64,000 nucleotides of DNA from Bacteroidota bacterium (GTDB lineage: Bacteria > Bacteroidota > Ignavibacteria > UBA10030 > SZUA-254). Within the stretch, counting starts at the first letter, position 1; each line of letters starts with the position of its first letter. The stretch spans positions 1 to 64,000 of the forward strand of contig DATJGD010000063.1 in the NCBI GenBank assembly GCA_035495255.1, read 5' to 3'. Of this stretch, positions 4,706 through 54,832 are shown piece after piece. A program made the position numbers and the translations under genes. Under the pieces are notes generated by a model. The model was given only the letters and a program-made list of their open reading frames with translations, made no database searches and was not told where the DNA came from.

Positions 4706-5986
4706 CTATTGCTCTTTTGTCACGTCGAAATATTTTCTCTGTTTCTGCAAATCGACAACACGAATTTCTATATTTCCCTCATGAAGGCGCGAAGCGAGAA
4801 AGATCGGCGCGCATCCGTTACCCTCCATCGATCCGCTGTTGGAATCGTCGGGCGGCTCATCCGTCGCCTGGCGGAGCTTGCTGAGGGGGGAGGGCGCGTC
4901 ACAGAGCGAGCAAATCAGCTCGCCATTTTTCAAATAGTACTTGCCGTAGCTGTAGCAGGCATAACATGCATCAAAGGCGGTCCCGAATTTGCCAAGGCCG
5001 AGGCGGAGAATAAAGAATCGAATCTCCAGCCCGTTGTCCTCGATGGTAAAGCGATGAATTGCATTATCGCTCACGCGGGTGATCGGTATCCTCACGACTC
5101 CGGAAGAAGGTACCGGGACTGACTCTGCCGAAAAATCCATTGAAGTGTTCGACGAGAAGATCTCTCCGACCCCGAGGAAAAGAACCAGTCCCAGGGAGGC
5201 AATCGCGGCGGAGAGCTGCCAGCGCCGCTGAGGACGTGAAGATCCCGTACCGCTGCTGCGGCCGGGAATGAAGAACATTACCGCCGGAATACACACGATC
5301 GCGATAATGAAGAGCACTTCATGCTGAACGATCGGTCCCAGGATACCCATCATGTGCGGGTTTGCGGGGAACACTCCGTACTCGTAAAACTCGTGCAGGG
5401 AGTTGACGACGAGCTGGAGCGCAAAGATCAACAATGTTATCGCCGTGACCTTGAGAAAGCGGACGATGTCGATGCGGATGCTTCCGCGGATAAAGAGTAC
5501 GGCGAAGACCACGGCGATCGAAAACCCTGCAAGCGTGCCCAGCAGGCTTCCCCATGCGTTTGTGCTCAGAGAGACCGCCTGGAGAAATATCGCCGTTTCG
5601 ATTCCTTCACGGACAATCATAAAAAACGTGAAGCTGATGATACTGAGATGTGCGCGCCACTGCCCGGATGCCTCGACGATGGTGTTCACCCGCTGTTCGA
5701 TCTCTCCTTTGATCTTTTTGCCTGTAAACCACATCCAGACAACCATGGAGATGACAAAGACTGCGGCAATAAGCTGGAAGAGGCCTTCGAGCGATTCCTG
5801 GTCGATCGCCAATTTTTGAAATATCATCGCCCCGCCGATGCTGGCGACGATTGCGAGGCAGAGCCCGAGATAGACGGAGCTGACCAGGAAGGGGCTTCCG
5901 ATCTTCTGGAGGTAGACAACGAGAATCCCTATAACAAGCGCTATTTCTATTCCCTCGCGAAGGGCGATAATTAACGATTCAACCAT
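4706..5986 (-). CDS. FTR1/EfeU-family high-affinity iron permease fused to a C-terminal Cys-rich (DUF2318-like) domain
   Basis: There are two REGIE motifs (REGIEIA, REGIETA) within TM helices, which are the hallmark of FTR1 permeases. The C-terminal ~120 aa carry CYACYSYG..CSLCD, i.e. two CxxC pairs. Confidence 0.75.
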   Translation of the reverse strand: MVESLIIALREGIEIALVIGILVVYLQKIGSPFLVSSVYLGLCLAIVASIGGAMIFQKLAIDQESLEGLFQLIAAVFVISMVVWMWFTGKKIKGEIEQRVNTIVEASGQWRAHLSIISFTFFMIVREGIETAIFLQAVSLSTNAWGSLLGTLAGFSIAVVFAVLFIRGSIRIDIVRFLKVTAITLLIFALQLVVNSLHEFYEYGVFPANPHMMGILGPIVQHEVLFIIAIVCIPAVMFFIPGRSSGTGSSRPQRRWQLSAAIASLGLVLFLGVGEIFSSNTSMDFSAESVPVPSSGVVRIPITRVSDNAIHRFTIEDNGLEIRFFILRLGLGKFGTAFDACYACYSYGKYYLKNGELICSLCDAPSPLSKLRQATDEPPDDSNSGSMEGNGCAPIFLASRLHEGNIEIRVVDLQKQRKYFDVTKEQ

Positions 5987-5989
5987 AAC

Positions 5990-6436
5990 CTAAGATTTTT
6001 TCTTCGATTGGCACTTTGCGCATGTCCCGAAAATCTGAAGAGAGGAATTGCGCGGGCGAAATCTTTTCTCCTCACACACTTCCCGTTGGATCTTTTCGAG
6101 CTTATCATTGACAAATTCGATTATTTCGCCGCAATCGAGGCAAATGAGATGGTCATGACGGGGCCGGCCAAATGCTTTTTCGTACCGGGAATGATCCTCG
6201 CCAAATTGGAGCCGTGAAATCAATCCGCATTCGACAAGGAGGTCGAGGGTATTATAGACGGTGGCACGCGAGGCCTTCAGTCCTTTTTGGTTGAGAGAGG
6301 CGAACAACTGATCGGCATCAAAATGCCCGTTCGATTGCATTATCTGTTCGAGAAGAAGAAACCGCTCCTTTGTAGGGCGCAGCCTCTTTTCTTTCAAATA
6401 TGACGATAGTGTGGTTTTTGCAGCTTCGATATCCAA
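5990..6436 (-). CDS. fur: Ferric uptake regulator Fur (TTG start)
   Basis: An N-terminal winged helix is present. The HDHLICLDCGEIIEF block is nearly identical to the E. coli Fur metal-site block. There is a C-terminal CxxC. Confidence 0.8.
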   Translation of the reverse strand: MDIEAAKTTLSSYLKEKRLRPTKERFLLLEQIMQSNGHFDADQLFASLNQKGLKASRATVYNTLDLLVECGLISRLQFGEDHSRYEKAFGRPRHDHLICLDCGEIIEFVNDKLEKIQREVCEEKRFRPRNSSLQIFGTCAKCQSKKKS

Positions 6437-6719: not shown

Positions 6720-7835
6720 GTGAAGCAGGATAAGAATAAGCATATCAAGGGCAGACCGATCGTTCCGAAGCCGGTCCCCAAGAATGTCCCCGTTACGAAG
6801 CTCGTAGACGAATATTTTCAAGCATATAATGCAGGCAGATTGAGGGAAGCATGCCATCTTTTCTCGCACAAAATGCTTGCAAAGGATGTAACAGTGGGAA
6901 TGAGCCTCACGGGTGCCTTAACTCCTGCCGGATTAGGCGGTTCATGCATCGTACCGCTCATGAAAGCCGGATATGTCGATTGGATCGTCAGCACAGGCGC
7001 GAACTTGTATCATGATACACACTTCGCTATAGGCCATACGCTTCATCGCGGAACGCCGTTTTCAGACGATCGATTGCTTCGCCAGCGCGGGATTATCAGG
7101 ATTTATGATATCGTATTCGATTATGAGGTGCTGCTCTCAACCGACGCCTACTTCAGGACACTTCTTCGATTGCCCGAATTTCAACGGGAAATGGGGACTG
7201 CAGAGCTTCATTACCGTTTGGGAAAATACATCGCAGCTCGCGAAAAAGTCCTCGGCATCAAGCACAGCAGCGTGATTGCGACGGCCTATCGATGCGGTGT
7301 TCCTATCTATACTTCTTCGCCCGGGGACAGCTCAATCGGCATGAATATCGCCGAAGTCGCGTTGACCGGCCATAAAATCAGAATTGACGTGCTCCTCGAT
7401 GTCAATGAGACGGCTGCGATCGTCCTGGATGCGAAACGCAAAGGGGGAAAGAGCGGCGTTCTCATCATGGGTGGAGGGTCGCCGAAGAATTTTGTCCTTC
7501 AGACCGAACCGCAGATTCAGGAAGTCTTGAAGATCGATGAGAAAGGGCATGATTTTTATCTCCAGGTGACCGATGCCCGTCCCGATACCGGCGGCCTTTC
7601 AGGCGCCACGCCGGCCGAGGCTGTTACATGGGGAAAAGTCGATCCGGATAAGCTGCCCGACGCCGTTGTGGCGTATCTCGACTCGACGATTGCGCTGCCG
7701 ATTATGACGTCGTATGCCCTCGCGAATGCCAAGCCGAGAAAGCTCAAGCGGCTTTACGATCAACGAAGGATTCTGGTCGCGAATCTCTATGACGAATATC
7801 AAAAAGTGTTGCGTCGCAAGAAAAAAATTAAATAA
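6720..7835 (+). CDS. Deoxyhypusine synthase-like protein (DHS family), GTG start
   Basis: 371 aa. It has the DHS-family blocks [15 protein letters not shown] and MGGGSPKNF, and its length matches the family. Confidence 0.6.
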
Positions 7836-7909
7836 CAACATAATCAAATCCCAAAAGGACTCGCCAATCAAATGGCGGGGAAAATTCATCCACATCATGG
7901 AGGGAAAAC

Positions 7910-8110
7910 ATGAGCCGATTCACCGAATTGCGGGACCTGCTGAATAGCTACGAGAAGGATTTTATCAAGTTTTACGAGAAAGGCAACAAGTCCGCCGGAA
8001 CTCGCGTGCGAAAAGAGATGAACGAGCTGAAGAAAAAAGCTCAGGACATTCGCAAAGAGATCCAGGAAATCAAGCAAAAAGCGAAGGAATCCGAAGGCGG
8101 AGGAATGTAA
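7910..8110 (+). CDS. Histone H1-like nucleoid protein (Hc1 family)
   Basis: 66 aa, highly basic. The motif KGNKSAGTRVRKEMNELKK resembles the Hc1 N-terminal domain. A GGAGGG SD lies 7 nt upstream. Confidence 0.5.
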   Translation: MSRFTELRDLLNSYEKDFIKFYEKGNKSAGTRVRKEMNELKKKAQDIRKEIQEIKQKAKESEGGGM

Positions 8111-8229
8111 TTACTTTTTAGTTCGTGTTGGCAGGAGACTTTTTCGGTTCCGTTCGCGGGGCCGGGGAAGTCTCTTGCTCTTTATAGGGGCTTTTCGTTA
8201 GATTACTCCAACCTCACAACGGAATTCTC

Positions 8230-9414
8230 ATGAAGATTTTCATTCTGGCCGCCGCGGCCATGGTCTGCACTTGCCTTTCCTTTGGCCAGGTTGCGGATTA
8301 CAAAAGAATACATTTCGATGCGCTTGTCGTCGATACGCACAACGATGTCGTCCAGCGAATGCTCGGCGGAGAAGATATTTCGAAACTGACGCATCACGGC
8401 CAATCCGATCTTCCGCGGTGGAAGGAAGGAGGGTTGGATGTTCAGATGTTCTCAATCTGGGTGCCGCCGGAGCAGACAAAGAAAAGCTATTATGCGCAAT
8501 CGGATGAGCAGATCGATTCCGTCGAAAGCCTCGCGAGGAGGACCCCCGACCGCGTTGGCATGGCCTATTCCACTAAAGATATTCAACGGCTCGTCAAGGA
8601 GGGGAAATTTGCCGCAATGCTCGGAATGGAAGGGGGACATCCGATCGATAACGACCTGAAAAAGCTTGAGCATTTCTACAAGCGGGGCGTCCGCTACATG
8701 ACCTTAACTTGGAATAACAGCCTCGATTGGGCCACCTCGGCGAAGGACGAAACCGATCCCGAAGCCAAACTGCCGCACAAGGGACTGACACAATTCGGTA
8801 AAAAGGTCGTAAAAAAGATGAACGAACTTGGAATGATGGTCGATATTTCGCATGTCGGCGAACAAACATTCTGGGATGTACTGAAGGTTACCAGGAAACC
8901 GGTCATCGCATCGCATTCCTCTGCCTGGGCGCTCTGCCATCACAGGCGAAACCTTAAGGATGAACAGCTGAAGGCGATTAAGAAAAACGGAGGCGTGGTG
9001 TTTATTAACTTCTATCCGGCGTTCATCGACAGCACGTTTAACCGAAAAGAACAGGCCATGCAGGAACAGAATAAGGCGAAAATCGATTCCTTGAACAAAG
9101 CGGTCAAGGTAGAAGGCTTTCTCCAGGGACAGTATGTTGCGGAGCTTATGAAGGACGATTACGAGCCGTTCCGCCCGCCGCTCTCTACGCTCGTCGATCA
9201 TTTTGATTACGTTGCAAAGCTTATCGGCGTCGACCATGTCGGCATCGGATCTGACTTCGACGGTATAGAAGTAGCACCCAAAGACATGGATGATGTGACA
9301 CACTACCCAAACATTACCCGCGAACTCCTCAAGAGAGGGTATTCCGAATCTGATGTCAAAAAAATCCTCGGCGGGAACTTCATGAGGGTATTGAAAGAAG
9401 TCGAAAAGCATTGA
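8230..9414 (+). CDS. Membrane dipeptidase, peptidase family M19 (renal dipeptidase-like), secreted
   Basis: It has a signal peptide. DTHND and HVGIGSDFDG metal-binding motifs are present. Confidence 0.8.
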   Translation: MKIFILAAAAMVCTCLSFGQVADYKRIHFDALVVDTHNDVVQRMLGGEDISKLTHHGQSDLPRWKEGGLDVQMFSIWVPPEQTKKSYYAQSDEQIDSVESLARRTPDRVGMAYSTKDIQRLVKEGKFAAMLGMEGGHPIDNDLKKLEHFYKRGVRYMTLTWNNSLDWATSAKDETDPEAKLPHKGLTQFGKKVVKKMNELGMMVDISHVGEQTFWDVLKVTRKPVIASHSSAWALCHHRRNLKDEQLKAIKKNGGVVFINFYPAFIDSTFNRKEQAMQEQNKAKIDSLNKAVKVEGFLQGQYVAELMKDDYEPFRPPLSTLVDHFDYVAKLIGVDHVGIGSDFDGIEVAPKDMDDVTHYPNITRELLKRGYSESDVKKILGGNFMRVLKEVEKH

Positions 9415-24244: not shown

Positions 24245-26224
24245 TCAGTCTTTCTTCATTGCCGTACGGAATAACAATATGCCAAGCAATACGAACATGA
24301 TCGCACCGATAAGGTCCGCACCGGCGCCAAGATTTTCCCAGCCGTGTATGCCGACGGAATCGAGCAAATATTCGGCGACGGATACTTCCTTTTGCGCTCC
24401 GCCGGACATCGTCATAAAGGTTATGCCGCTGAGAATCGCGATCAACACGCCGGTCAATGATCCGCCTGCAACCAACCCGGTACTGTAGAGCATGCCCGGA
24501 CTCACTTCGGATTCTTCCTTCTTCTTCTGGATTCTATCAACAAGGGCTTTTAAGGCGCCTCCGGCAAATATCGGAGCTGTCGTCGAGAGCGGGAGATAAA
24601 CACCGACGGCGAACGAAAGCGATCGTATGCCGCACAATTCGACGACTACGGATATTGCCATGCCAATGAAGACGAGCGCCCAGGGGAGATCCTGTGCAAG
24701 CAAGCCCTTGATGATGGTTGCCATCAACGTTGCCTGAGGTGCTGCAAATTTCTCAGTTCCGATTGCATGCGGAATTCCCTTATACGCCATTGATCCGTCT
24801 ATCCATTGGAGGGTCATGCCCACGGCAAACGTAGAGACGAGCACGCCGATAATAAGCCCGATCTGCTGCCAGATCGGAGTCGCACCGACGATATATCCTG
24901 TCTTTAAATCCTGGCTCGTCGCGCCCGCGTTCGCCGCGGCGATACAGACGATGCCGCCGACGACCAGCGCGACCGATTGGAAGATATCGCCCTTCCAGCC
25001 GATGCTGACGAATATTAAACATGTTGCCATCAGTGTAGCGATCGTCATCCCGGAGATCGGATTGTTAGAGGAACCGATGATGCCGACAATTCGCGAGCTT
25101 ACGGTGACGAAGAAAAAGCCGAAGATGACGATCAACAATCCCATGAGCAAGGTGCCGGGGAATGTTCCGGGCATTTGCGGCAGGAGCGCGATGATGAGAA
25201 CGAGGAGAACCGATCCGATGACCACGTACGTGATGGGAAGATCCCGTTCCGTGCGCGATAATTTCACGCCAGACCTGTGTTCCTGCATGCTCTTAAAACT
25301 ATCCTTGAATGCAGAAACAATTGTCGGAAGCGTCTTAATCAGTGTAATAAGTCCGCCGGCGGCGACAGCTCCCGCGCCTATGTACCGCACATATCCGCCG
25401 CGAATTTCTGACGGCGACATATCTTTGATAAGCTTACCGGCAGGTTTCAGGATCGCCGGAAGGGAGTCGCCGATAAACGCGATCAGCGGAATGAGCACCA
25501 TGTACGAGAGAACGCCTCCCGCCACCAATACTCCCGCGATCCGGGGCCCGATGATATATCCCACGCCCATATACTCCGGGGTAATCTCGGCGCTGAGATT
25601 TGCGTTCGGGTATGAGGATCCACGTGGGGTTGTGTAGCCCGGAACATCCTTCCACAGGCCGAGGACGCTCATCAATGTCTTATAGGCAACTGCGATGCCG
25701 AGGCCTGCGAACAGGCGCTTCGCCATCGATCCCCCTTTTTCACCGGCCACCAGCACGTCAGCGCACGCGGCACCTTCGGGATATGGTAATACTCCGTGTT
25801 CCTTGACAATCAACGATCGTCGCAGGGGAACCATGAAGAGCACGCCGAGGATGCCTCCGACAAAGGCGAGGGTAAGAATGTTGAAATAATTGAAATAATT
25901 TTCACCGCCGGACAAAAAGATCAGTGCGGGGAAAGTAAACGCCACGCCCGCCGCGATGGATTCACCCGCAGATCCAATCGTCTGCACAATGTTATTTTCG
26001 AGGATCGTGGACTTGCCGACCCTTTTAAAGACTGCGATCGCAAGCACGGCAATCGGGATGGAGGCAGAGACCGTCAATCCGGCACGGAGCGCGAGATAGA
26101 CGGTTGCGGCACCAAAGATGAGCCCAAAGAAAGCACCGAGGAGAACCGCTTTCAATGAGAACTCGGCCATCACCGTCTCAGCAGCAACGAACGGTTGAAA
26201 TGATGATTTATTATTTTCAGCCAT
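24245..26224 (-). CDS. OPT-family oligopeptide transporter
   Basis: 659 aa with about 16 TM helices. An OPT superfamily pattern is present. Confidence 0.75.
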   Translation of the reverse strand: MAENNKSSFQPFVAAETVMAEFSLKAVLLGAFFGLIFGAATVYLALRAGLTVSASIPIAVLAIAVFKRVGKSTILENNIVQTIGSAGESIAAGVAFTFPALIFLSGGENYFNYFNILTLAFVGGILGVLFMVPLRRSLIVKEHGVLPYPEGAACADVLVAGEKGGSMAKRLFAGLGIAVAYKTLMSVLGLWKDVPGYTTPRGSSYPNANLSAEITPEYMGVGYIIGPRIAGVLVAGGVLSYMVLIPLIAFIGDSLPAILKPAGKLIKDMSPSEIRGGYVRYIGAGAVAAGGLITLIKTLPTIVSAFKDSFKSMQEHRSGVKLSRTERDLPITYVVIGSVLLVLIIALLPQMPGTFPGTLLMGLLIVIFGFFFVTVSSRIVGIIGSSNNPISGMTIATLMATCLIFVSIGWKGDIFQSVALVVGGIVCIAAANAGATSQDLKTGYIVGATPIWQQIGLIIGVLVSTFAVGMTLQWIDGSMAYKGIPHAIGTEKFAAPQATLMATIIKGLLAQDLPWALVFIGMAISVVVELCGIRSLSFAVGVYLPLSTTAPIFAGGALKALVDRIQKKKEESEVSPGMLYSTGLVAGGSLTGVLIAILSGITFMTMSGGAQKEVSVAEYLLDSVGIHGWENLGAGADLIGAIMFVLLGILLFRTAMKKD

Positions 26225-48279: not shown

Positions 48280-49208
48280 TGCCTTCGACGACAACGCCGC
48301 GCTGCCTTGCCTGTGGTGCGTCGAACGCTGAGCTCTGGACCACCGCGACGGACGCGGAATACAAATCGACCGATGAACGCTTCAGCCTGTACCGGTGCAA
48401 CTCCTGCGGTGTGCTCTTCATCGAGCCTGTTCCCCGCGACCGGCTGTCACAAATCTACCCGTCCAATTATTATTCCTTCCTTTCACAAAAAGATTCGTTT
48501 GTTAACAATGTAAAGAGACGGCTCGATGCCGGCCTCTTCAGGAAGATTCTCGGGAACATGCCCGGCGACTCACTCAATGCCCTTGATGTCGGAGGAGGTT
48601 CCGGCTGGGAGCTGTCGATCGCGCGCGAAGCCGATCGCCGCGTCAAGCATACGCAGGTAGTGGATTTCGATCCCGCTGCCGCCGAACTTGCCAAAAAAAA
48701 CGGGCATGAGTACTTCTGCGGACGCATCGAGGAATTTCAAACAGACAGGAAGTATGATTTCGTCCTCATGCTCAATCTCATTGAGCACGTCGAGCATCCG
48801 TTTGAGATATTAAGAAAAATCGAGAGCCTCCTCACTCCTCACGGCCGCATTCTCATCAAAACGCCGAATTACGATGCGCTCGACGCGCGGATATTCCGGA
48901 ATTCAAATTGGGGGGGATTTCATTGTCCGCGCCACTGGGTGATTTTCACTAAAGAAAGCTTTTATGAGATTGCTTCCCGCGCGGACCTTTCGGTCGCAGA
49001 GTTTTCCTATACCCAGGGCGCCCCTTTCTGGGCCTCGAGCACACTGTTTTGGATGGAGCGGCGCGGTTGGGTGAAGATTTCAAAGGAACGCCCCGTTATG
49101 TATCATCCCGCATTCTCGCTGCTGGGAGTATTCTTTGCCGCATTCGATTTTGTCCGGAAGCCATTCGCCAAGACATCCCAGATGTTTGTTGTCCTCGGGA
49201 AGAAATGA
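48279..49208 (+). CDS. Class I SAM-dependent methyltransferase with an N-terminal zinc ribbon
   Basis: CLACG..CNSCG is followed by methyltransferase motif I LDVGGGSGW. The start overlaps the desaturase stop as TGATG. Confidence 0.7.
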   Translation: MPSTTTPRCLACGASNAELWTTATDAEYKSTDERFSLYRCNSCGVLFIEPVPRDRLSQIYPSNYYSFLSQKDSFVNNVKRRLDAGLFRKILGNMPGDSLNALDVGGGSGWELSIAREADRRVKHTQVVDFDPAAAELAKKNGHEYFCGRIEEFQTDRKYDFVLMLNLIEHVEHPFEILRKIESLLTPHGRILIKTPNYDALDARIFRNSNWGGFHCPRHWVIFTKESFYEIASRADLSVAEFSYTQGAPFWASSTLFWMERRGWVKISKERPVMYHPAFSLLGVFFAAFDFVRKPFAKTSQMFVVLGKK

Positions 49209-49271
49209 CCCAACATTCTCTTTGATTCTGCCCAATTATTTTTGTATTTTGGATACAAAAAAAGACCGGAA

Positions 49272-50447
49272 ATGGCAGATCAAGACCAAGAATTTCAACA
49301 GAATCCTCCCGAATCAGCACCATCGGAGCCGCAGTTTCCCGCTCCTCCGCCTCCGGTTCAAGAACCTTCAGCGAGGACGGAACAACCGCCTCAGCAGCAG
49401 CAAGAACAACGGCAGGATCGGCGAAGGGACAGGAATCCCCGTAACCAGCGGCGTCACGACCAGCCGCAGGGACAGCGCCGCGAGCCGCGCCACGACCAGC
49501 AGCAGCACCGCCAGGGGGGACTGGAAATCTCCATTGTTATTCCGTTGTACAACGAAGAGCAATCGCTGCGTGAGCTTCACGAGAAGATTCGCAATGCGCT
49601 GCACCGGTTCAACCGGTATGAAATTATTTTTGTCGACGACGGCAGCACCGACGGGTCGTTCCGCGTCCTCCAGGAGCTTCGTCAGCGCGACCGTCGCGTA
49701 AAGATCATCCGCTTCCGCCGCAACTTCGGGAAGTCTGCAGCCCTCTCTGTGGGTTTTGCGCAGGCCGAAGGCTCGTTCGTGATCACCATGGATGCCGATC
49801 TCCAGGACGATCCCAACGAGATACCCTCACTTGTTAATGAGCTGAAGAAAGGTACCGACCTGGTCTCCGGCTGGAAGAAGAAGCGCCGCGATCCGATCTC
49901 CAAGACGATTCCATCGAAGTTTTTCAACTTCGTCACTTCGGTGATGACCGGGATCCGGCTTCATGATTTTAACTGCGGCCTGAAAGGCTATAAGAAGGAC
50001 GTCGTCAAGGAAGTGCGGATTTACGGGGAGCTCCACCGCTACATTCCCGTGCTTGCGCATTGGTTGGGATTTAAGGTCGGTGAAATTCCTGTTCAGCACC
50101 ATGCCCGGAAATACGGCAAGACAAAATTTGGGTTCGGGAGATTCTGGAAAGGATTTTTGGATCTTCTTACAGTGCTTTTTACGACGCGGTACCTACAGCG
50201 TCCGCTCCATCTCTTCGGGTTCTGGGGAATCGTTTTCTTGCTGGCCGGCACTGCGATCGACGGCTATCTTGTCTTCCTGAAATTTGTCGAAGGCTTCTCC
50301 TTGAGCAACCGTCCGCTCTTTACCGCCGGCATACTTCTTATTATCGTCGGGGTGCAGTTTATATCGATCGGACTGATCGGTGAAATGATTTCGAAAACGC
50401 GCTCCACTTCGGAAAAGGAATATTCGATCCGCGAGGTTTGGAAATAA
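49272..50447 (+). CDS. GT2 polyprenol-phosphate glycosyltransferase (DPM1/GtrB/ArnC-like) with a ~100 aa Q/R/P-rich low-complexity N-terminal extension. An alternative TTG start lies at 49242.
   Basis: The GT2 core reads ISIVIPLYNEE..VDDGSTDGS..DADLQD. There are two C-terminal TM helices. The N-terminal extension reads EQPPQQQQEQRQDRRRDRNPRNQRRHDQPQGQRREPRHDQQQHRQ. Confidence 0.7.
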   Translation: MADQDQEFQQNPPESAPSEPQFPAPPPPVQEPSARTEQPPQQQQEQRQDRRRDRNPRNQRRHDQPQGQRREPRHDQQQHRQGGLEISIVIPLYNEEQSLRELHEKIRNALHRFNRYEIIFVDDGSTDGSFRVLQELRQRDRRVKIIRFRRNFGKSAALSVGFAQAEGSFVITMDADLQDDPNEIPSLVNELKKGTDLVSGWKKKRRDPISKTIPSKFFNFVTSVMTGIRLHDFNCGLKGYKKDVVKEVRIYGELHRYIPVLAHWLGFKVGEIPVQHHARKYGKTKFGFGRFWKGFLDLLTVLFTTRYLQRPLHLFGFWGIVFLLAGTAIDGYLVFLKFVEGFSLSNRPLFTAGILLIIVGVQFISIGLIGEMISKTRSTSEKEYSIREVWK

Positions 50448-50514: not shown

Positions 50515-51609
50515 ATGACCATCACCGTCAACGACCTCAAATACGATTGCCGGCATTTCCGCGGCGACATCCCCTGCAAGCCGAACAAGCAGCACGGCGT
50601 CCACTGTAAGGACGACCAGGGGAACGACTGTGCGTATTACGATCGCACCGATAAACGGATTCTCATCATTAAGCTCGGCGCCCTGGGAGATGTCGTCAGG
50701 ACGACCCCGCTTCTGCGAAAGCTCAAACAAACCGATCATGCCGCCGAAATCTGGTGGCTCACGCTCGAACCTTCGGTCGTCCCGAAAAGCGTCGACCGGA
50801 TTCTTTCCTATACGGCACAAAGCCTCGCTACGCTGCACGCGACTCCGTTCGACACCATTTACTGCCTGGATAAAGATAAAGAAGCGTGCGCATTATGCGC
50901 GCAGCTTACCGCGCGTGTGAAGCGCGGGTTCACCCTGCGCGACGGGAAATGCGTTCCCTGCGATACGGCCGCGGAACACAAATATCTTACCGGCGTCTTT
51001 GACGATCTCAGCAAGGTAAACACAAAAAGCTACCAGCAGGAGATTTTTGAAATATGCGGGTTTGAATTTTCCGGCGAGCAGTATATCATGCCCGAGCTTC
51101 AGGAGTACGTCTGGAAATTCCCGAAGAAGAAGACGATCGTCGGCCTGAATACAGGATGCGGCGGACGCTGGACGTCAAGATTGTGGCCGCAGGCATACTG
51201 GGTATCGCTGGCCCGCCGCCTGAAAAAGGCGGGGCTCACGCCGCTTCTCCTCGGTGGAGAACAGGAGCACGCGAAGAATCTTCAGATTGCAAAAGCCTCC
51301 GGCGCTCTTTATCCCGGGCATTTTTCGCTGAATCAGTTCATGAGCGAAGTCGGTCAGTGCGATCTTGTCGTCACCGCGGTAACGATGGCGATGCATATTG
51401 CGATCGGGTACGGCAAGAACATCGTCCTGTTCAATAATATCTTTAATAAACACGAGTTCGAGCTGTACGGGAAGGGCGAAATCCTCGAACCCGATTTCGA
51501 GTGCGACTGCTTTTACTCGCCCACGTGCCCGAACAATTGCATGCAGTATCTTTCGGTCGATACCGTGTTTGAATCCTGCACGCGTCTTCTGAAGCTCCGC
51601 GCCAGATGA
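50515..51609 (+). CDS. Glycosyltransferase family 9 (ADP-heptose:LPS heptosyltransferase-like) with a Cys-rich N-terminus
   Basis: KLGALGDVVRTTPLLRKLK is the classic GT9 N-terminal motif. The length of 364 aa matches the family. Confidence 0.75.
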   Translation: MTITVNDLKYDCRHFRGDIPCKPNKQHGVHCKDDQGNDCAYYDRTDKRILIIKLGALGDVVRTTPLLRKLKQTDHAAEIWWLTLEPSVVPKSVDRILSYTAQSLATLHATPFDTIYCLDKDKEACALCAQLTARVKRGFTLRDGKCVPCDTAAEHKYLTGVFDDLSKVNTKSYQQEIFEICGFEFSGEQYIMPELQEYVWKFPKKKTIVGLNTGCGGRWTSRLWPQAYWVSLARRLKKAGLTPLLLGGEQEHAKNLQIAKASGALYPGHFSLNQFMSEVGQCDLVVTAVTMAMHIAIGYGKNIVLFNNIFNKHEFELYGKGEILEPDFECDCFYSPTCPNNCMQYLSVDTVFESCTRLLKLRAR

Positions 51610-53912
51610 CGAAAGGCAAACCTCTGACCGCGCCGCCGAAGGCGTCCAGAACGTTAGCGGGAATCAAAGACTGGCATGTCGTGAGCGCCATTGTTCTTCT
51701 CACCGTTATTTTCTTCCGGAACATAATTTTCAAAAGCGCGTTCTTCTGGGAAGATTTCATGTACTTTTACTATCCCGCCCGCAACTTCGCGGCTGTCTCG
51801 ATGGCGGGGGGTGAGTTGCCGCTCTGGAATCCGTTCACGCTAAACGGGATGCCGTTCCAGGCTGACATTCAAACAGCCCTGTTCTATATCCCCAACATGC
51901 TCCTCACGCTCTTCGTGAGCGGGGGAAAACTCTCGTTCTACTGGCTCGAGCTGGAGATCGTCGGCCATTATGTGATCGCCGGAGTGGGTATGTACTACCT
52001 GGCAAAATCGTACGGCCTCGAACGAATCTACGCCTTCTTTGCCGCACTCGTCTTCATGTTCTCCGGCTATGCGATCACGAGGGCGATCCATCAGCCGATG
52101 ATTTGCGAAACTGCATGGCTTCCCCTGATCATTCTGTTGTTCAGAAAGATGATGAAGGAGAAGTCGGCCGTCGCAATGATTCTCTGCGCCGTCGTCCTCG
52201 GCCACGCAATCCTCGCGGGGTTTCCGCAGCTGACGCTCTATATCTATTTCCTGCTGTTCCTCACCTTTGCAGTCGAGTGCATCGCTCGCTTGCGTTCGGG
52301 GGGAGTGAAGACAGCGTTTCCTGTCGCGGCGCTCGCCGGGGGTGTTGTCGTCATTTCTCTGGCTCTGGCGGCGATTCAACTCCTGCCGACAATTGAGCTT
52401 GCTCCGTATACGCAGCGGGCCGAGATGACCTACGAAAAATCTCTCGATGGCTCGCTGAGCTGGCCCGGCCTGATCACGCTCATCGTGCCGAAATTCTTCG
52501 GCGCGTACGGTGCGCAGGGTTCGGATTACTGGATGCAGGGATCGTATGGCCAGTATTGGGAAACGGTCGTGTATATCGGGATTCCCGCGCTCGTTTGTGT
52601 GGTGTTCGCATCGCTGCTTATGCGCAAAAATGCGGACGTAATGTTTCTCTTCTGTGTCGTTGTCTTTTCCCTCTTGTACGCGCTGGGGGACAGCTTCTTC
52701 CTGCACAAATTATTTTTTACCCATGTGCCGGCATTTAACAAGTTTAGGGAGCCGGGACGCCTGTCATTTCTCTGGACCTTCGCCGCCGCTATTCTTGCCG
52801 GCTTTGGCCTTCGGCAATGCGTGGAAGAATCACGGATTGCAAAGAAGTCATTGCAGAAGATTCTTTTTGGTGTAGCGCTTGCCGGCGTAGCGCTGTACCT
52901 GGCGGTACAGCAGGGCTGGCTTCAAGAGGTTCGCGGAGCCGACAGCGCCCAGGTTCATCAGATCGCGAGCTCGGCGACCACGACAGCGATGATCTTTATT
53001 CTTGGTGTGTGTGCCATACTTTTCCTCCGGTCGAGAAACGCCTTGTCAGGTACGGCCGCAATCGCACTTCTCTTCGGAGTGCAATTCATCGATATGCATG
53101 TCTTCGGGTTCGACCAGAACAACGGGACAACCAATCCCGATGATTATTTCGACAGGACTGCGAGTATTGTCACGATGGTTAAGGAGCAGGGAAGAGACGA
53201 ATATTTCCGCGTGAATTCCAGGGCGGGAAACGCCATGCTCCTCGATCGCAACCAGGGCATGATCGACCGGATTTTCACCATGGAAGGCTATTCGTCGCTC
53301 GTCCTTCAGCGTGTCTACCCGCCGGCAAAGGACCGGGATCACGTGAACAATCTTATGAACGCGAAATATTACGTCGATGTTGATGCGCAGCGGCGGACGA
53401 TGAGCCTCGGACGCTCGACAACATATGTCCCCCGCGCCTACATGGTCTATCATACCGATGTTATCAGGGACGATGCGGAACAGAAGGCGTTTATGTCGGG
53501 CGACGTGTTCAATCCCCGCAGCACAGTCGTGCTGGACGACCAGCCGGAAGTCCCGCTGACGGCCCCGGATACCACGACGCCCCCTCCGGTGAGGATCAGC
53601 TCGTACGGATTAAATACGATCGAACTCGATGTGACGACTCCGAAAAAAGGATATCTTTCCCTGAGCGAAATCTATTATCCCGCGTGGAAAGCGTATGTTG
53701 ACAATGTCGAGCATCCGGTCTATCGCGCCAACTGGAATCTTCGCGCCGTCTTCGTCGATGCCGGAACGCATCACGTCAGCCTCCGCTATGAATCAGGGAG
53801 TTTTCACCGCGGCATCTGGATCACACTCGGTGCATTCCTGCTCTGCATCATCGGCCTCGTCGTGCTCGGCCGAAAAAAGCAGCCGAAAGAACCAGCGAAA
53901 GGAGTTGCCTGA
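51606..53912 (+). CDS. YfhO-family polytopic membrane protein (GT-C-like glycosyltransferase using polyprenol-P-sugar donors)
   Basis: 768 aa. It has about 13 TM helices, a large C-terminal extracytoplasmic domain and a final TM helix. It sits immediately upstream of a GtrB-like GT2, as in the CsbB/YfhO arrangement. Confidence 0.6.
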   Translation: MTKGKPLTAPPKASRTLAGIKDWHVVSAIVLLTVIFFRNIIFKSAFFWEDFMYFYYPARNFAAVSMAGGELPLWNPFTLNGMPFQADIQTALFYIPNMLLTLFVSGGKLSFYWLELEIVGHYVIAGVGMYYLAKSYGLERIYAFFAALVFMFSGYAITRAIHQPMICETAWLPLIILLFRKMMKEKSAVAMILCAVVLGHAILAGFPQLTLYIYFLLFLTFAVECIARLRSGGVKTAFPVAALAGGVVVISLALAAIQLLPTIELAPYTQRAEMTYEKSLDGSLSWPGLITLIVPKFFGAYGAQGSDYWMQGSYGQYWETVVYIGIPALVCVVFASLLMRKNADVMFLFCVVVFSLLYALGDSFFLHKLFFTHVPAFNKFREPGRLSFLWTFAAAILAGFGLRQCVEESRIAKKSLQKILFGVALAGVALYLAVQQGWLQEVRGADSAQVHQIASSATTTAMIFILGVCAILFLRSRNALSGTAAIALLFGVQFIDMHVFGFDQNNGTTNPDDYFDRTASIVTMVKEQGRDEYFRVNSRAGNAMLLDRNQGMIDRIFTMEGYSSLVLQRVYPPAKDRDHVNNLMNAKYYVDVDAQRRTMSLGRSTTYVPRAYMVYHTDVIRDDAEQKAFMSGDVFNPRSTVVLDDQPEVPLTAPDTTTPPPVRISSYGLNTIELDVTTPKKGYLSLSEIYYPAWKAYVDNVEHPVYRANWNLRAVFVDAGTHHVSLRYESGSFHRGIWITLGAFLLCIIGLVVLGRKKQPKEPAKGVA

Positions 53913-53914
53913 AC

Positions 53915-54832
53915 ATGTATTCGATCGTCATACCGATCTATAACGAGCAGGAAACGATTCCCGAACTCTATCGCCGCCTGAAACCTGTCCTCGACGGGTT
54001 CGACGCTCCTTCCGAAGTCATCATCGTCGACGACGGAAGCCAGGACGAAACGTTCTCGATGCTCAGCGATCTCAACAAACAAGACCCGAGAATCAAGGCG
54101 CTCCGGTTTTCCAGAAATTTCGGCCACCAGACGGCGATCAGCGCCGGCATCGATGCGGCAACCGGCGATGCCGTGATCCTTATGGACGGCGACCTTCAGG
54201 ATCCCCCTGAAGTGCTGCCGCAGTTCATCGCGAAGTGGAAAGAAAAGTTCGACGTCGTCTACGCGATTCGGAAAAAGCGTAAAGAAAATATCTTTAAGCG
54301 AACGGCGTACGCGCTATTTTACCGTTTGTTGAAAAGGCTCTCCTATCTCGACATTCCGCTCGATTCCGGCGACTTCTGCCTCATGGACCGTAGAGTGGCG
54401 GAGACCATAAAGTCGATGCGCGAGCGCGCGCGATTTGTGCGCGGCCTGCGGACGTGGGCAGGGTTCCGCCAATCAGGCCTTGAGTACGAGCGCGATTACC
54501 GTTTTGCCGGCGATCCAAAGTATACCTTTTCCAAACTTCTTCGCCTGGCATACGACGGGCTGTTCTCGTTCTCCACCGTTCCGCTGCGGCTCGCCGTGTA
54601 CACCGGATTTTCCTTTTCGGGAATCGCGTTCCTCGGAGGCCTGCTGATCATTTACCGCCGGCTGGCGCACGGCATCGATGTCGTCGGATGGGCATCGACG
54701 ATCGTCATCATTATTTTCCTCGGCGGCGTCATTCTCGGAACGCTCGGGATCATCGGGGAATATATCAGCCGCATTTATGAGGAAGTCAAGAACCGTCCGC
54801 TCTACGTTGTCCAGGACAAAATAGGATTCTGA
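53915..54832 (+). CDS. GT2 polyprenol-phosphate sugar synthase (GtrB/CsbB/ArnC-like)
   Basis: YSIVIPIYNE, VDDGSQD and DGDLQD motifs are present. There are two C-terminal TM helices. Confidence 0.8.
   Translation: MYSIVIPIYNEQETIPELYRRLKPVLDGFDAPSEVIIVDDGSQDETFSMLSDLNKQDPRIKALRFSRNFGHQTAISAGIDAATGDAVILMDGDLQDPPEVLPQFIAKWKEKFDVVYAIRKKRKENIFKRTAYALFYRLLKRLSYLDIPLDSGDFCLMDRRVAETIKSMRERARFVRGLRTWAGFRQSGLEYERDYRFAGDPKYTFSKLLRLAYDGLFSFSTVPLRLAVYTGFSFSGIAFLGGLLIIYRRLAHGIDVVGWASTIVIIIFLGGVILGTLGIIGEYISRIYEEVKNRPLYVVQDKIGF

Follow-up and report, generated by a model that had tools for sequence, protein, structure and literature searches.

The window analysed here, the whole 64,000-nt stretch at positions 1 to 64,000 (forward strand) of contig DATJGD010000063.1, comes from assembly GCA_035495255.1 of a Bacteroidota bacterium with a GTDB lineage in the Ignavibacteria. 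At 49272-50447 (+), it carries a gene for a 391-aa GtrB/ArnC-type polyprenyl-phosphate glycosyltransferase (GT) of family GT2, for which the existing annotation is the generic 'glycosyltransferase family 2 protein'. The catalytic core is preceded by an N-terminal tail, and the gene is followed by those of a GT9-like protein, a YfhO-family GT-C enzyme and a tail-less GT2 paralogue (Table 1). An earlier note on this DNA, made from the letters alone, had drawn attention to the tail. Comparison with homologues indicates that the tail is a clade-wide feature with a conserved charge layout, not the oddity of one protein.

Table 1. Features of the tailed GT2 gene and its neighbourhood in the window.
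Feature	Position	Strand	Basis
Candidate Bacteroidetes-type -7 box (TAnnTTTG), TATTTTTG, 35 nt 5' of the ATG	49237..49244	+	consensus match only
Most likely start codon, ATG (MADQDQEF...)	49272..49274	+	identical NCBI protein, homologue starts, sole canonical in-frame start before codon 92
N-terminal tail, predicted disordered, aa 1-84	49272..49523	+	composition, AlphaFold2, no Pfam, PDB or HMMER match for the tail alone
Acidic head and start of proline-rich spacer, aa 1-30, net -5	49272..49361	+	charge count
Arginine-rich basic block, aa 45-80, net +6 (RQDRRRDRNPRNQRRH...)	49404..49511	+	charge count
Degenerate direct repeat, 23 nt, 87% identical, 36 nt (12 codons) apart	49447..49469 and 49483..49505	+	repeat finder
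GtrB/ArnC-type GT2 core, aa 85-391 and stop	49524..50447	+	PF00535, PDB alignments, D174/D176, AlphaFold2
Predicted transmembrane hairpin, helices aa 311-340 and 348-376	50202..50399	+	AlphaFold2; aligns to the ArnC transmembrane part
GT9-like (heptosyltransferase-like) protein, 17 cysteines	50515..51609	+	PF01075, E = 1e-6
YfhO-family GT-C membrane glycosyltransferase	51606..53912	+	PF09586, E = 2e-14
Tail-less GtrB-like GT2 paralogue, 305 aa, starts MYSIVIPIYNE	53915..54832	+	32% identity over the whole core, including the transmembrane hairpin

From residue 85 on, the protein shares the architecture of GtrB (Synechocystis sll0501, PDB 5EKP; Shigella GtrB) and ArnC (9BHC, 8VXH), namely a GT-A domain with PxYNE and DxD motifs (here PLYNE and DAD), juxtamembrane helices and a C-terminal hairpin of two transmembrane helices. 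PF00535 covers aa 87-248 (E = 5e-37; 127.9 bits against a gathering threshold of 23.3), and alignments to ArnC (9bhc, E = 5e-50) and GtrB (5ekp, E = 9e-40) run from query residue 85 or 82 to 376-377, bearing out the assignment to GT2 polyprenol-phosphate glycosyltransferases made in the earlier note. IPLYNEE (aa 90-96) and DAD (aa 174-176, including D174 and D176) are invariant in an alignment of 42 homologues and align to ArnC. The AlphaFold2 model is consistent with this architecture; its core is confident and ends in three long C-terminal helices at 288-307, 311-340 and 348-376. These features point to a membrane-anchored undecaprenyl-phosphate (Und-P) glycosyltransferase of the GtrB/ArnC type, with transfer of a sugar from a nucleotide sugar onto Und-P as the predicted activity. 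Despite the ArnC-like fold, ArnC identity cannot be assigned, because the score against the ArnC equivalog NCBIfam NF007986 (196.8 bits) is far under its cut-off of 529; the second-best NCBIfam match, the PgfS equivalog NF047588, likewise scores 172.3 bits under a cut-off of 500. Dolichol-phosphate mannose synthase (DPMS/DPM1; Pyrococcus 5MLZ) has the same GT-A domain and reaction class (E = 1e-22, residues 83-285), but differs in its membrane part and lacks a long disordered N-terminal tail. In the solved GtrB and ArnC chains, the alignment starts at residues 9-45, in some cases with expression tags included, and none of these chains is long-tailed.

One unbroken open reading frame (ORF) spans 49242-50447 (+), for which the ORF lister reported TTG 49242 as the start. 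The true start is almost certainly ATG 49272 instead, since an identical 391-aa NCBI protein from a Bacteroidota metagenome-assembled genome (MAG; P0001) begins MADQDQEF, the nearest homologues begin MAEQEQEF, MAEQDQEN and MADQEQEP, and TTG 49242 sits inside the promoter-like box TATTTTTG. With this start the tail comprises 84 aa. The low-complexity extension reported in the earlier note is therefore present, though shorter than the approximately 100 residues given there.

Several lines of evidence indicate that the tail is translated. There is no in-frame ATG, GTG or TTG between codons 1 and 92 of the 49272 frame, and codon 92 encodes the Leu of the catalytic IPLYNEE, so that starting there would remove strand β1. 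In the absence of a canonical in-frame start before the catalytic motif, translation has to run through the tail. An open N-terminal extension of 48-186 aa is found in about 96 of the 120 best database matches, and a scan of GTDB genomes found about 36 species with an open tail. When the window is aligned to L081, the closest relative with a DNA sequence to compare, all gaps are whole codons, and the proportion of nonsynonymous differences (pN) in the tail is 0.25, below the synonymous proportion (pS) of 0.57. This suggests purifying selection on the tail, although it evolves about three times faster than the core (pN = 0.077).

The alternative, already raised in the earlier note, is that translation starts just ahead of ISIVIPLYNEE and that the 'tail' is an untranslated leader or regulatory RNA. 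The lone candidate for such a start, a rare CTG at codon 84 (49521), stands two codons ahead of ISIVIP, and some gene callers do report 282-300-aa versions of tailed homologues (P0122, P0133, P0147 and P0161, JGI and ENA calls from tailed clusters). However, these short calls begin inside the core, past β1, which marks them as truncation artefacts and not as tail-less proteins. More than 130 homologues keep the frame open with all indels in frame, and the acidic N-terminus is conserved with promoter-like boxes just 5' of it. An RNA element within the tail or ahead of it was rejected, as an Rfam scan (by E-value) of 48800-49900 returned no RNA family. An internal start or a frameshift is likewise ruled out by the uninterrupted ORF and the lack of a canonical internal start, and most homologues in the lineage are tailed, so neither outcome that the earlier note named as fatal to the extension has materialised. 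We consider a mis-annotated start highly improbable. Gene callers apparently skip the low-complexity tail, which may be a recurring annotation artefact of the family; MAG annotations of this family need care, because the calls are often truncated to 282-300 aa without β1.

The tail is dominated by Q (25%), P (18%) and R (15.5%), followed by E (8%) and D (7%). Only 5 of its 84 residues (6%) are hydrophobic, against 40% of the core (binomial P = 6e-13), and without any hydrophobic stretch a signal peptide, a Tat motif and a transmembrane segment are ruled out. Its charged fraction is 0.31 and its net charge 0, with the charges segregated into an acidic head and an arginine-rich basic block (Table 1). 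In an AlphaFold2 model built on a 42-sequence alignment, residues 1-80 have a predicted local distance difference test (pLDDT) score below 50 and no secondary structure, in agreement with the disorder proposed in the earlier note. We describe the tail as a blocky polyampholyte, predicted to be intrinsically disordered and cytoplasmic by topology.

Searches with the tail alone gave 0 phmmer matches at E ≤ 0.001 among 1.84 billion representative proteins and 0 HMMER matches at E ≤ 10 in the PDB; because the power of such searches is low for a short low-complexity query, this is read as no detectable homology. A module shared with other proteins was thus not found, within the limits of that low-power test. 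At the DNA level the tail is only weakly repetitive. The repetitiveness ascribed to it earlier comes down to one degenerate 23-nt repeat of two to three copies and a short CAG run, both from the repeat finder, while Tandem Repeats Finder reported nothing in the tail-coding DNA. A microsatellite or tandem-repeat contingency locus is rejected, as the coding region holds no perfect or near-perfect tandem array.

Layout statistics taken over 132 homologous tails reveal a common plan: an acidic head (M-x-D/E-Q/E), a variable P/Q spacer and a basic block ending 12-19 residues before β1. The M-x-D/E start is present in 100 of the 132 tails, 113 have a net negative charge over their first 12 residues, and in 118 the best 20-aa window carries a net charge of +6 or more. 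This basic window ends at a median of 15 residues before β1 (interquartile range, 12-19). Charge segregation exceeds that of shuffled tails in 123/132 cases, with z < -2 in 56. Aromatic residues make up 5.0% of the basic block against 1.7% of the remaining tail, a 3-fold enrichment (e.g., FFRRKGHKRFYFRKK and RYNRYYRGRRKSY), and diverse species have on average two aromatics per 20 residues of the block; the basic block in the window has none. The composition itself varies, from Q/P/R-rich tails in GC-rich genomes such as this one to K/N/Y-rich tails in the AT-rich Ignavibacteriaceae and Melioribacteraceae (e.g., RYNRYYRGRRKSYNKY...SFKK), and the charge layout is retained across this switch. The tail is predicted to be unstructured and is poor in hydrophobic residues, and its pattern is kept where its sequence is not, as expected of a disordered region with a selected charge layout. 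Selection thus appears to keep the tail as a layout, not as a sequence.

Open tails of 26-186 aa, exceptionally about 380 aa, occur in approximately 130 homologues from Ignavibacteria-, Kapaibacterium-, Melioribacter- and Kryptoniota-type MAGs, and most tailed proteins fall in the corresponding part of a core tree built roughly by neighbour joining. Nested inside this part is a Calditrichota group without tails, and a few tailed sequences, such as L026, are placed outside it. The tailed MAGs include L009, L016, L020 and L032, relatives of Ignavibacterium album or Melioribacter roseus. Most orthologues from KSB1, Latescibacterota, Gemmatimonadota and Balneolaceae have 2-23 residues ahead of β1, as does the paralogue in the same operon, which has 2 and serves as an internal control. 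Together with the solved chains, these tail-less proteins support the view that such a tail is not a normal feature of DPM1/GtrB enzymes. When all ORFs of 80 aa or more in the window are compared, one further tract of this kind turns up; it is weaker (0.60 vs 0.875) and lies in an 80-aa frame near 25103 that is probably non-coding, leaving the tailed GT2 as the one gene of about 55 with a strong tract. In related loci totalling about 1 Mb, nearly all tracts of this type lie in the tailed GT2, the others being mostly overlapping or off-frame ORFs. A genome-wide habit of Q/R/P tails is ruled out by the window, by these loci and by the tail-less paralogue.

Comparison bears out the idea of the earlier note that in-frame length variation could be concentrated in the tail, although the window copy has no clean tandem array. 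Among proteins clustered at 90% identity or more, all indels map to the tail and the core is free of them, and all are in-frame gains or losses of repeat units, such as a third QQEGRDRRN unit, a PQEAP duplication, an extra EGQRx unit or one more Gln in a poly-Q run. Tail length therefore seems to evolve by gain and loss of in-frame repeat units. Among the longer forms, P0075, P0113 and P0117 have tails of 157-186 aa made of tandem peptide repeats, a Kapaibacterium MAG (L073, about 1420-2610) has a tail of about 380 aa with (RERPE)n-type repeats, and L037 (about 4954-6040) has a 364-aa ATG-free open frame 5' of the core. P0014 (Candidatus Scalindua japonica), with PxYNE at aa 19 and 337 and DxD at aa 103 and 421, looks like a tandem-duplicated GtrB-type enzyme in one polypeptide; other database matches, of 620-650 aa, agree with it in length and score.

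Such turnover raises the question of whether the tail is a tolerated passenger that arose once in an Ignavibacteria-type ancestor and was kept by drift, or as a solubility or entropic bristle, without specific binding. The fast sequence turnover (tail pN about three times core pN), the range in length from 26 to about 380 aa, the tracking of genome GC content by tail composition, the loss of the tail in some clade members, and the lack of HMMER homology and predicted structure for the tail alone all fit this explanation. Against it, the tail persists over a class-level clade with its acidic head, basic-block position and aromatic enrichment kept and with pN < pS, and its absence from the paralogue and the neighbouring genes shows that the tail is no genome-wide habit. 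We regard a passenger as unlikely.

Our favoured reading, which we hold to stand at about an even chance, is that the tail is an electrostatic tether binding an anionic surface, likeliest the inner membrane. The basic block, at a fixed short distance from the catalytic domain, would bind this surface, most likely the acidic phospholipid or Und-P face of the inner membrane, and the acidic head could act as an intramolecular counter-charge that tunes the binding. The tether would affect residence at the membrane interface, lateral clustering or substrate capture and leave the chemistry itself unaffected. The membrane is favoured as the surface because the enzyme works there and because basic-aromatic clusters are classic membrane binders, with a pattern like that of membrane-binding segments such as the MARCKS effector domain. 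GtrB is a tetramer (PMC4728340), and since ArnC is tetrameric as well, each enzyme would carry four tails if the tailed protein assembles likewise.

Several points weigh against a membrane tether. The basic block in the window lacks aromatics, is broken by D and E, and reaches +6 over 36 residues. An additional tether is not obviously needed, because the catalytic core is already strongly basic (net charge +15, isoelectric point [pI] 9.8). In a GT-A fold, the N-terminal end of β1 probably faces away from the membrane. The layout and aromatic counts treat related sequences as independent, so that their significance is overstated, and L033 and L039 are short-tailed exceptions inside the tailed part of the tree.

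The same basic block could instead bind nucleic acid (mRNA, rRNA/ribosomes or the nucleoid), coupling the enzyme or its synthesis to RNA or tethering DNA or RNA at the membrane. In that case the acidic head would mimic nucleic acid and hold back non-specific binding by auto-inhibition, a role also proposed for the acidic tip of Hfq. The R/Q/N/Y-rich blocks, of which RDRRNRPQRQR and RYNRYYRGRRKSY are examples, are similar both to arginine-rich RNA-binding motifs and to the basic tails by which some YidC proteins bind ribosomes, and a cytoplasmic, disordered tail with a conserved acidic-head/basic-block layout would suit this role. We nevertheless find nucleic-acid binding improbable, given that Pfam shows no recognisable RNA-binding domain or motif in the tail, HMMER gives no match of it to known RNA-binding proteins, the operon has no RNA-related genes, and RNA binding by a lipid-carrier glycosyltransferase has no obvious rationale.

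Charge segregation beyond chance is also what a multivalent interaction module would show, either self-associating head-to-block between tetramers or recruiting a partner such as the GT9-like protein, and so concentrating the pathway in membrane patches. Four tails per enzyme, given a tetramer like that of GtrB, the Arg/Tyr 'stickers' in many relatives and the conservation of the GT9-like neighbour, which is 50-81% identical across Ignavibacteria-type MAGs and usually adjoins the tailed GT2, would agree with this. Yet the GT9-like protein, with a pI of 8.2 and a net charge of +4, is no acidic partner, and a spacer varying more than 10-fold in length suits a defined docking geometry poorly. The adjacency of tail and GT9 is moreover loose, a strict tie being ruled out by L061 and L068, which have GT9 without a tail, and by L004, L005 and L009, which have a tail without GT9. 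Such clustering thus seems distinctly improbable. Docking of the basic block on an acidic partner was rejected too, as neither the GT9-like protein nor the enzyme's own +15 core offers an electrostatic complement; the GT-A domain of tailed orthologues is more basic than that of tail-less ones (net charge, +6.6 vs +2.3). In the case of the YfhO system, the tail as a glycosylation substrate is ruled out, since it is cytoplasmic by topology and not Ser/Thr-rich; disordered regions that serve as glycosylation substrates in streptococci are rich in Ser/Thr (PMC12041528). The protein or nucleic-acid interactions and the divisome or pole positioning suggested in the earlier note remain speculation, and nothing here indicates the divisome or the pole.

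Returning to the tether, the closest functional comparisons are the MARCKS effector domain, the ZipA and FtsK linkers, the FtsZ C-terminal variable region and the ribosome-binding tails of YidC. Like these segments, the tail is disordered, cytoplasmic and attached to a membrane protein, with F/Y scattered among R/K clusters in many clade members and a P/Q-rich spacer. It differs in lacking sequence homology to them and, in the window copy, in lacking aromatics. Among these examples, we know of no N-terminal tail on a glycosyltransferase with an acidic-head/basic-block layout. Searches of the accessible literature likewise turned up no account of a disordered N-terminal tail for GtrB-type enzymes or for Ignavibacteria. 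The kind of enzyme is known; the tail and its conserved layout are new relative to that literature, and of modest interest unless the tail is shown to regulate or localise the enzyme.

Und-P-sugar synthases of the GtrB, ArnC and CsbB type feed envelope glycosylation and lipid A modification and compete for a limited Und-P pool, and to our knowledge they are regarded as compact catalytic tetramers without regulatory appendages. A class-level tail selected for its layout suggests that in one lineage this step has acquired an extra level of localisation or regulation. The tail further provides a clean bacterial test case for disordered regions conserved by charge pattern and not by sequence, with the tail-less paralogue in the same operon as a ready-made control. 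A stronger proposal, on which we are doubtful, is that the tail is a functional electrostatic module that, by way of its acidic head and basic-aromatic block, sets the location or density of the enzyme on the inner membrane by clustering or condensation, or tethers it to RNA or the nucleoid. If true, this would be the first described bacterial polyprenyl-phosphate glycosyltransferase regulated by a disordered region, with a length tuned by repeat-unit indels.

Varying upstream context and TAnnTTTG boxes upstream suggest that the tailed gene heads its operon. TAnnTTTG is the Bacteroidetes -7 promoter consensus. Of the 42 tailed loci, 10 have it at a distance of 21-68 nt ahead of the predicted start, against 2.7% of random positions, and in nine of these 10 it lies at 21-48 nt (the window, L014, L016, L021, L022, L024, L045, L054 and L071). 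The order of tailed GT2, GT9-like gene, YfhO-family GT-C gene and tail-less GT2 paralogue is kept in L081/L082, L083, L085 and L086 despite differing upstream genes. The cysteines of the GT9-like protein cluster at aa 12-39 and 330-355, which suggests metal binding. YfhO, presumed to use a lipid-linked sugar, is conserved in L081, L083, L085 and L086, with PMT_2 in its stead in L087, where a PMT_2 (ArnT-like) gene at 7126-8724 directly follows the tailed GT2 and precedes the GT9-like gene; L085 carries YfhO plus a PMT/PMT_2 gene. The position of the paralogue is filled in L081 and L085, and in L086 it holds two split gene calls that match PF00535. That one operon has two Und-P-sugar synthases suggests two different lipid-linked sugars.

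A GT-C gene is encoded with the polyisoprenyl-glycosyltransferase, YfhO lying two genes downstream, and judging by gene content the operon would encode a multi-component extracytoplasmic glycosylation system, with the tailed GT2 as its cytoplasmic first step. No GtrA/GtcA-type flippase is annotated in the loci retrieved for comparison; the window was not searched for one. The Gram-positive CsbB/GtcA/YfhO and PgfS-type systems pair an Und-P-sugar synthase with a GT-C transferase (PMC5836110, PMC7389260, PMC8035078, PMC12041528). In these systems, a GT2 Und-P-sugar synthase is likewise encoded with a YfhO-family GT-C, and no such tail is reported in the searchable literature for their characterised GT2 partners. 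The operon in the window differs from them in its Ignavibacteria-type (Bacteroidota) host, its Cys-rich GT9-like protein and its second GtrB-like GT2.

In two lineages, a small gene of the Hc1 type (histone H1-like, PF07432) precedes the tailed GT2, directly in L086 (5554-5754) and one gene away in L083 (4416-4622); the window has none at that position. Further upstream in the window, a gene of the fatty-acid-desaturase family (PF00487; 47269-48279, +) lies between GT4 and methyltransferase genes in an apparent glycan cluster, an arrangement that is also conserved in L081 and L082.

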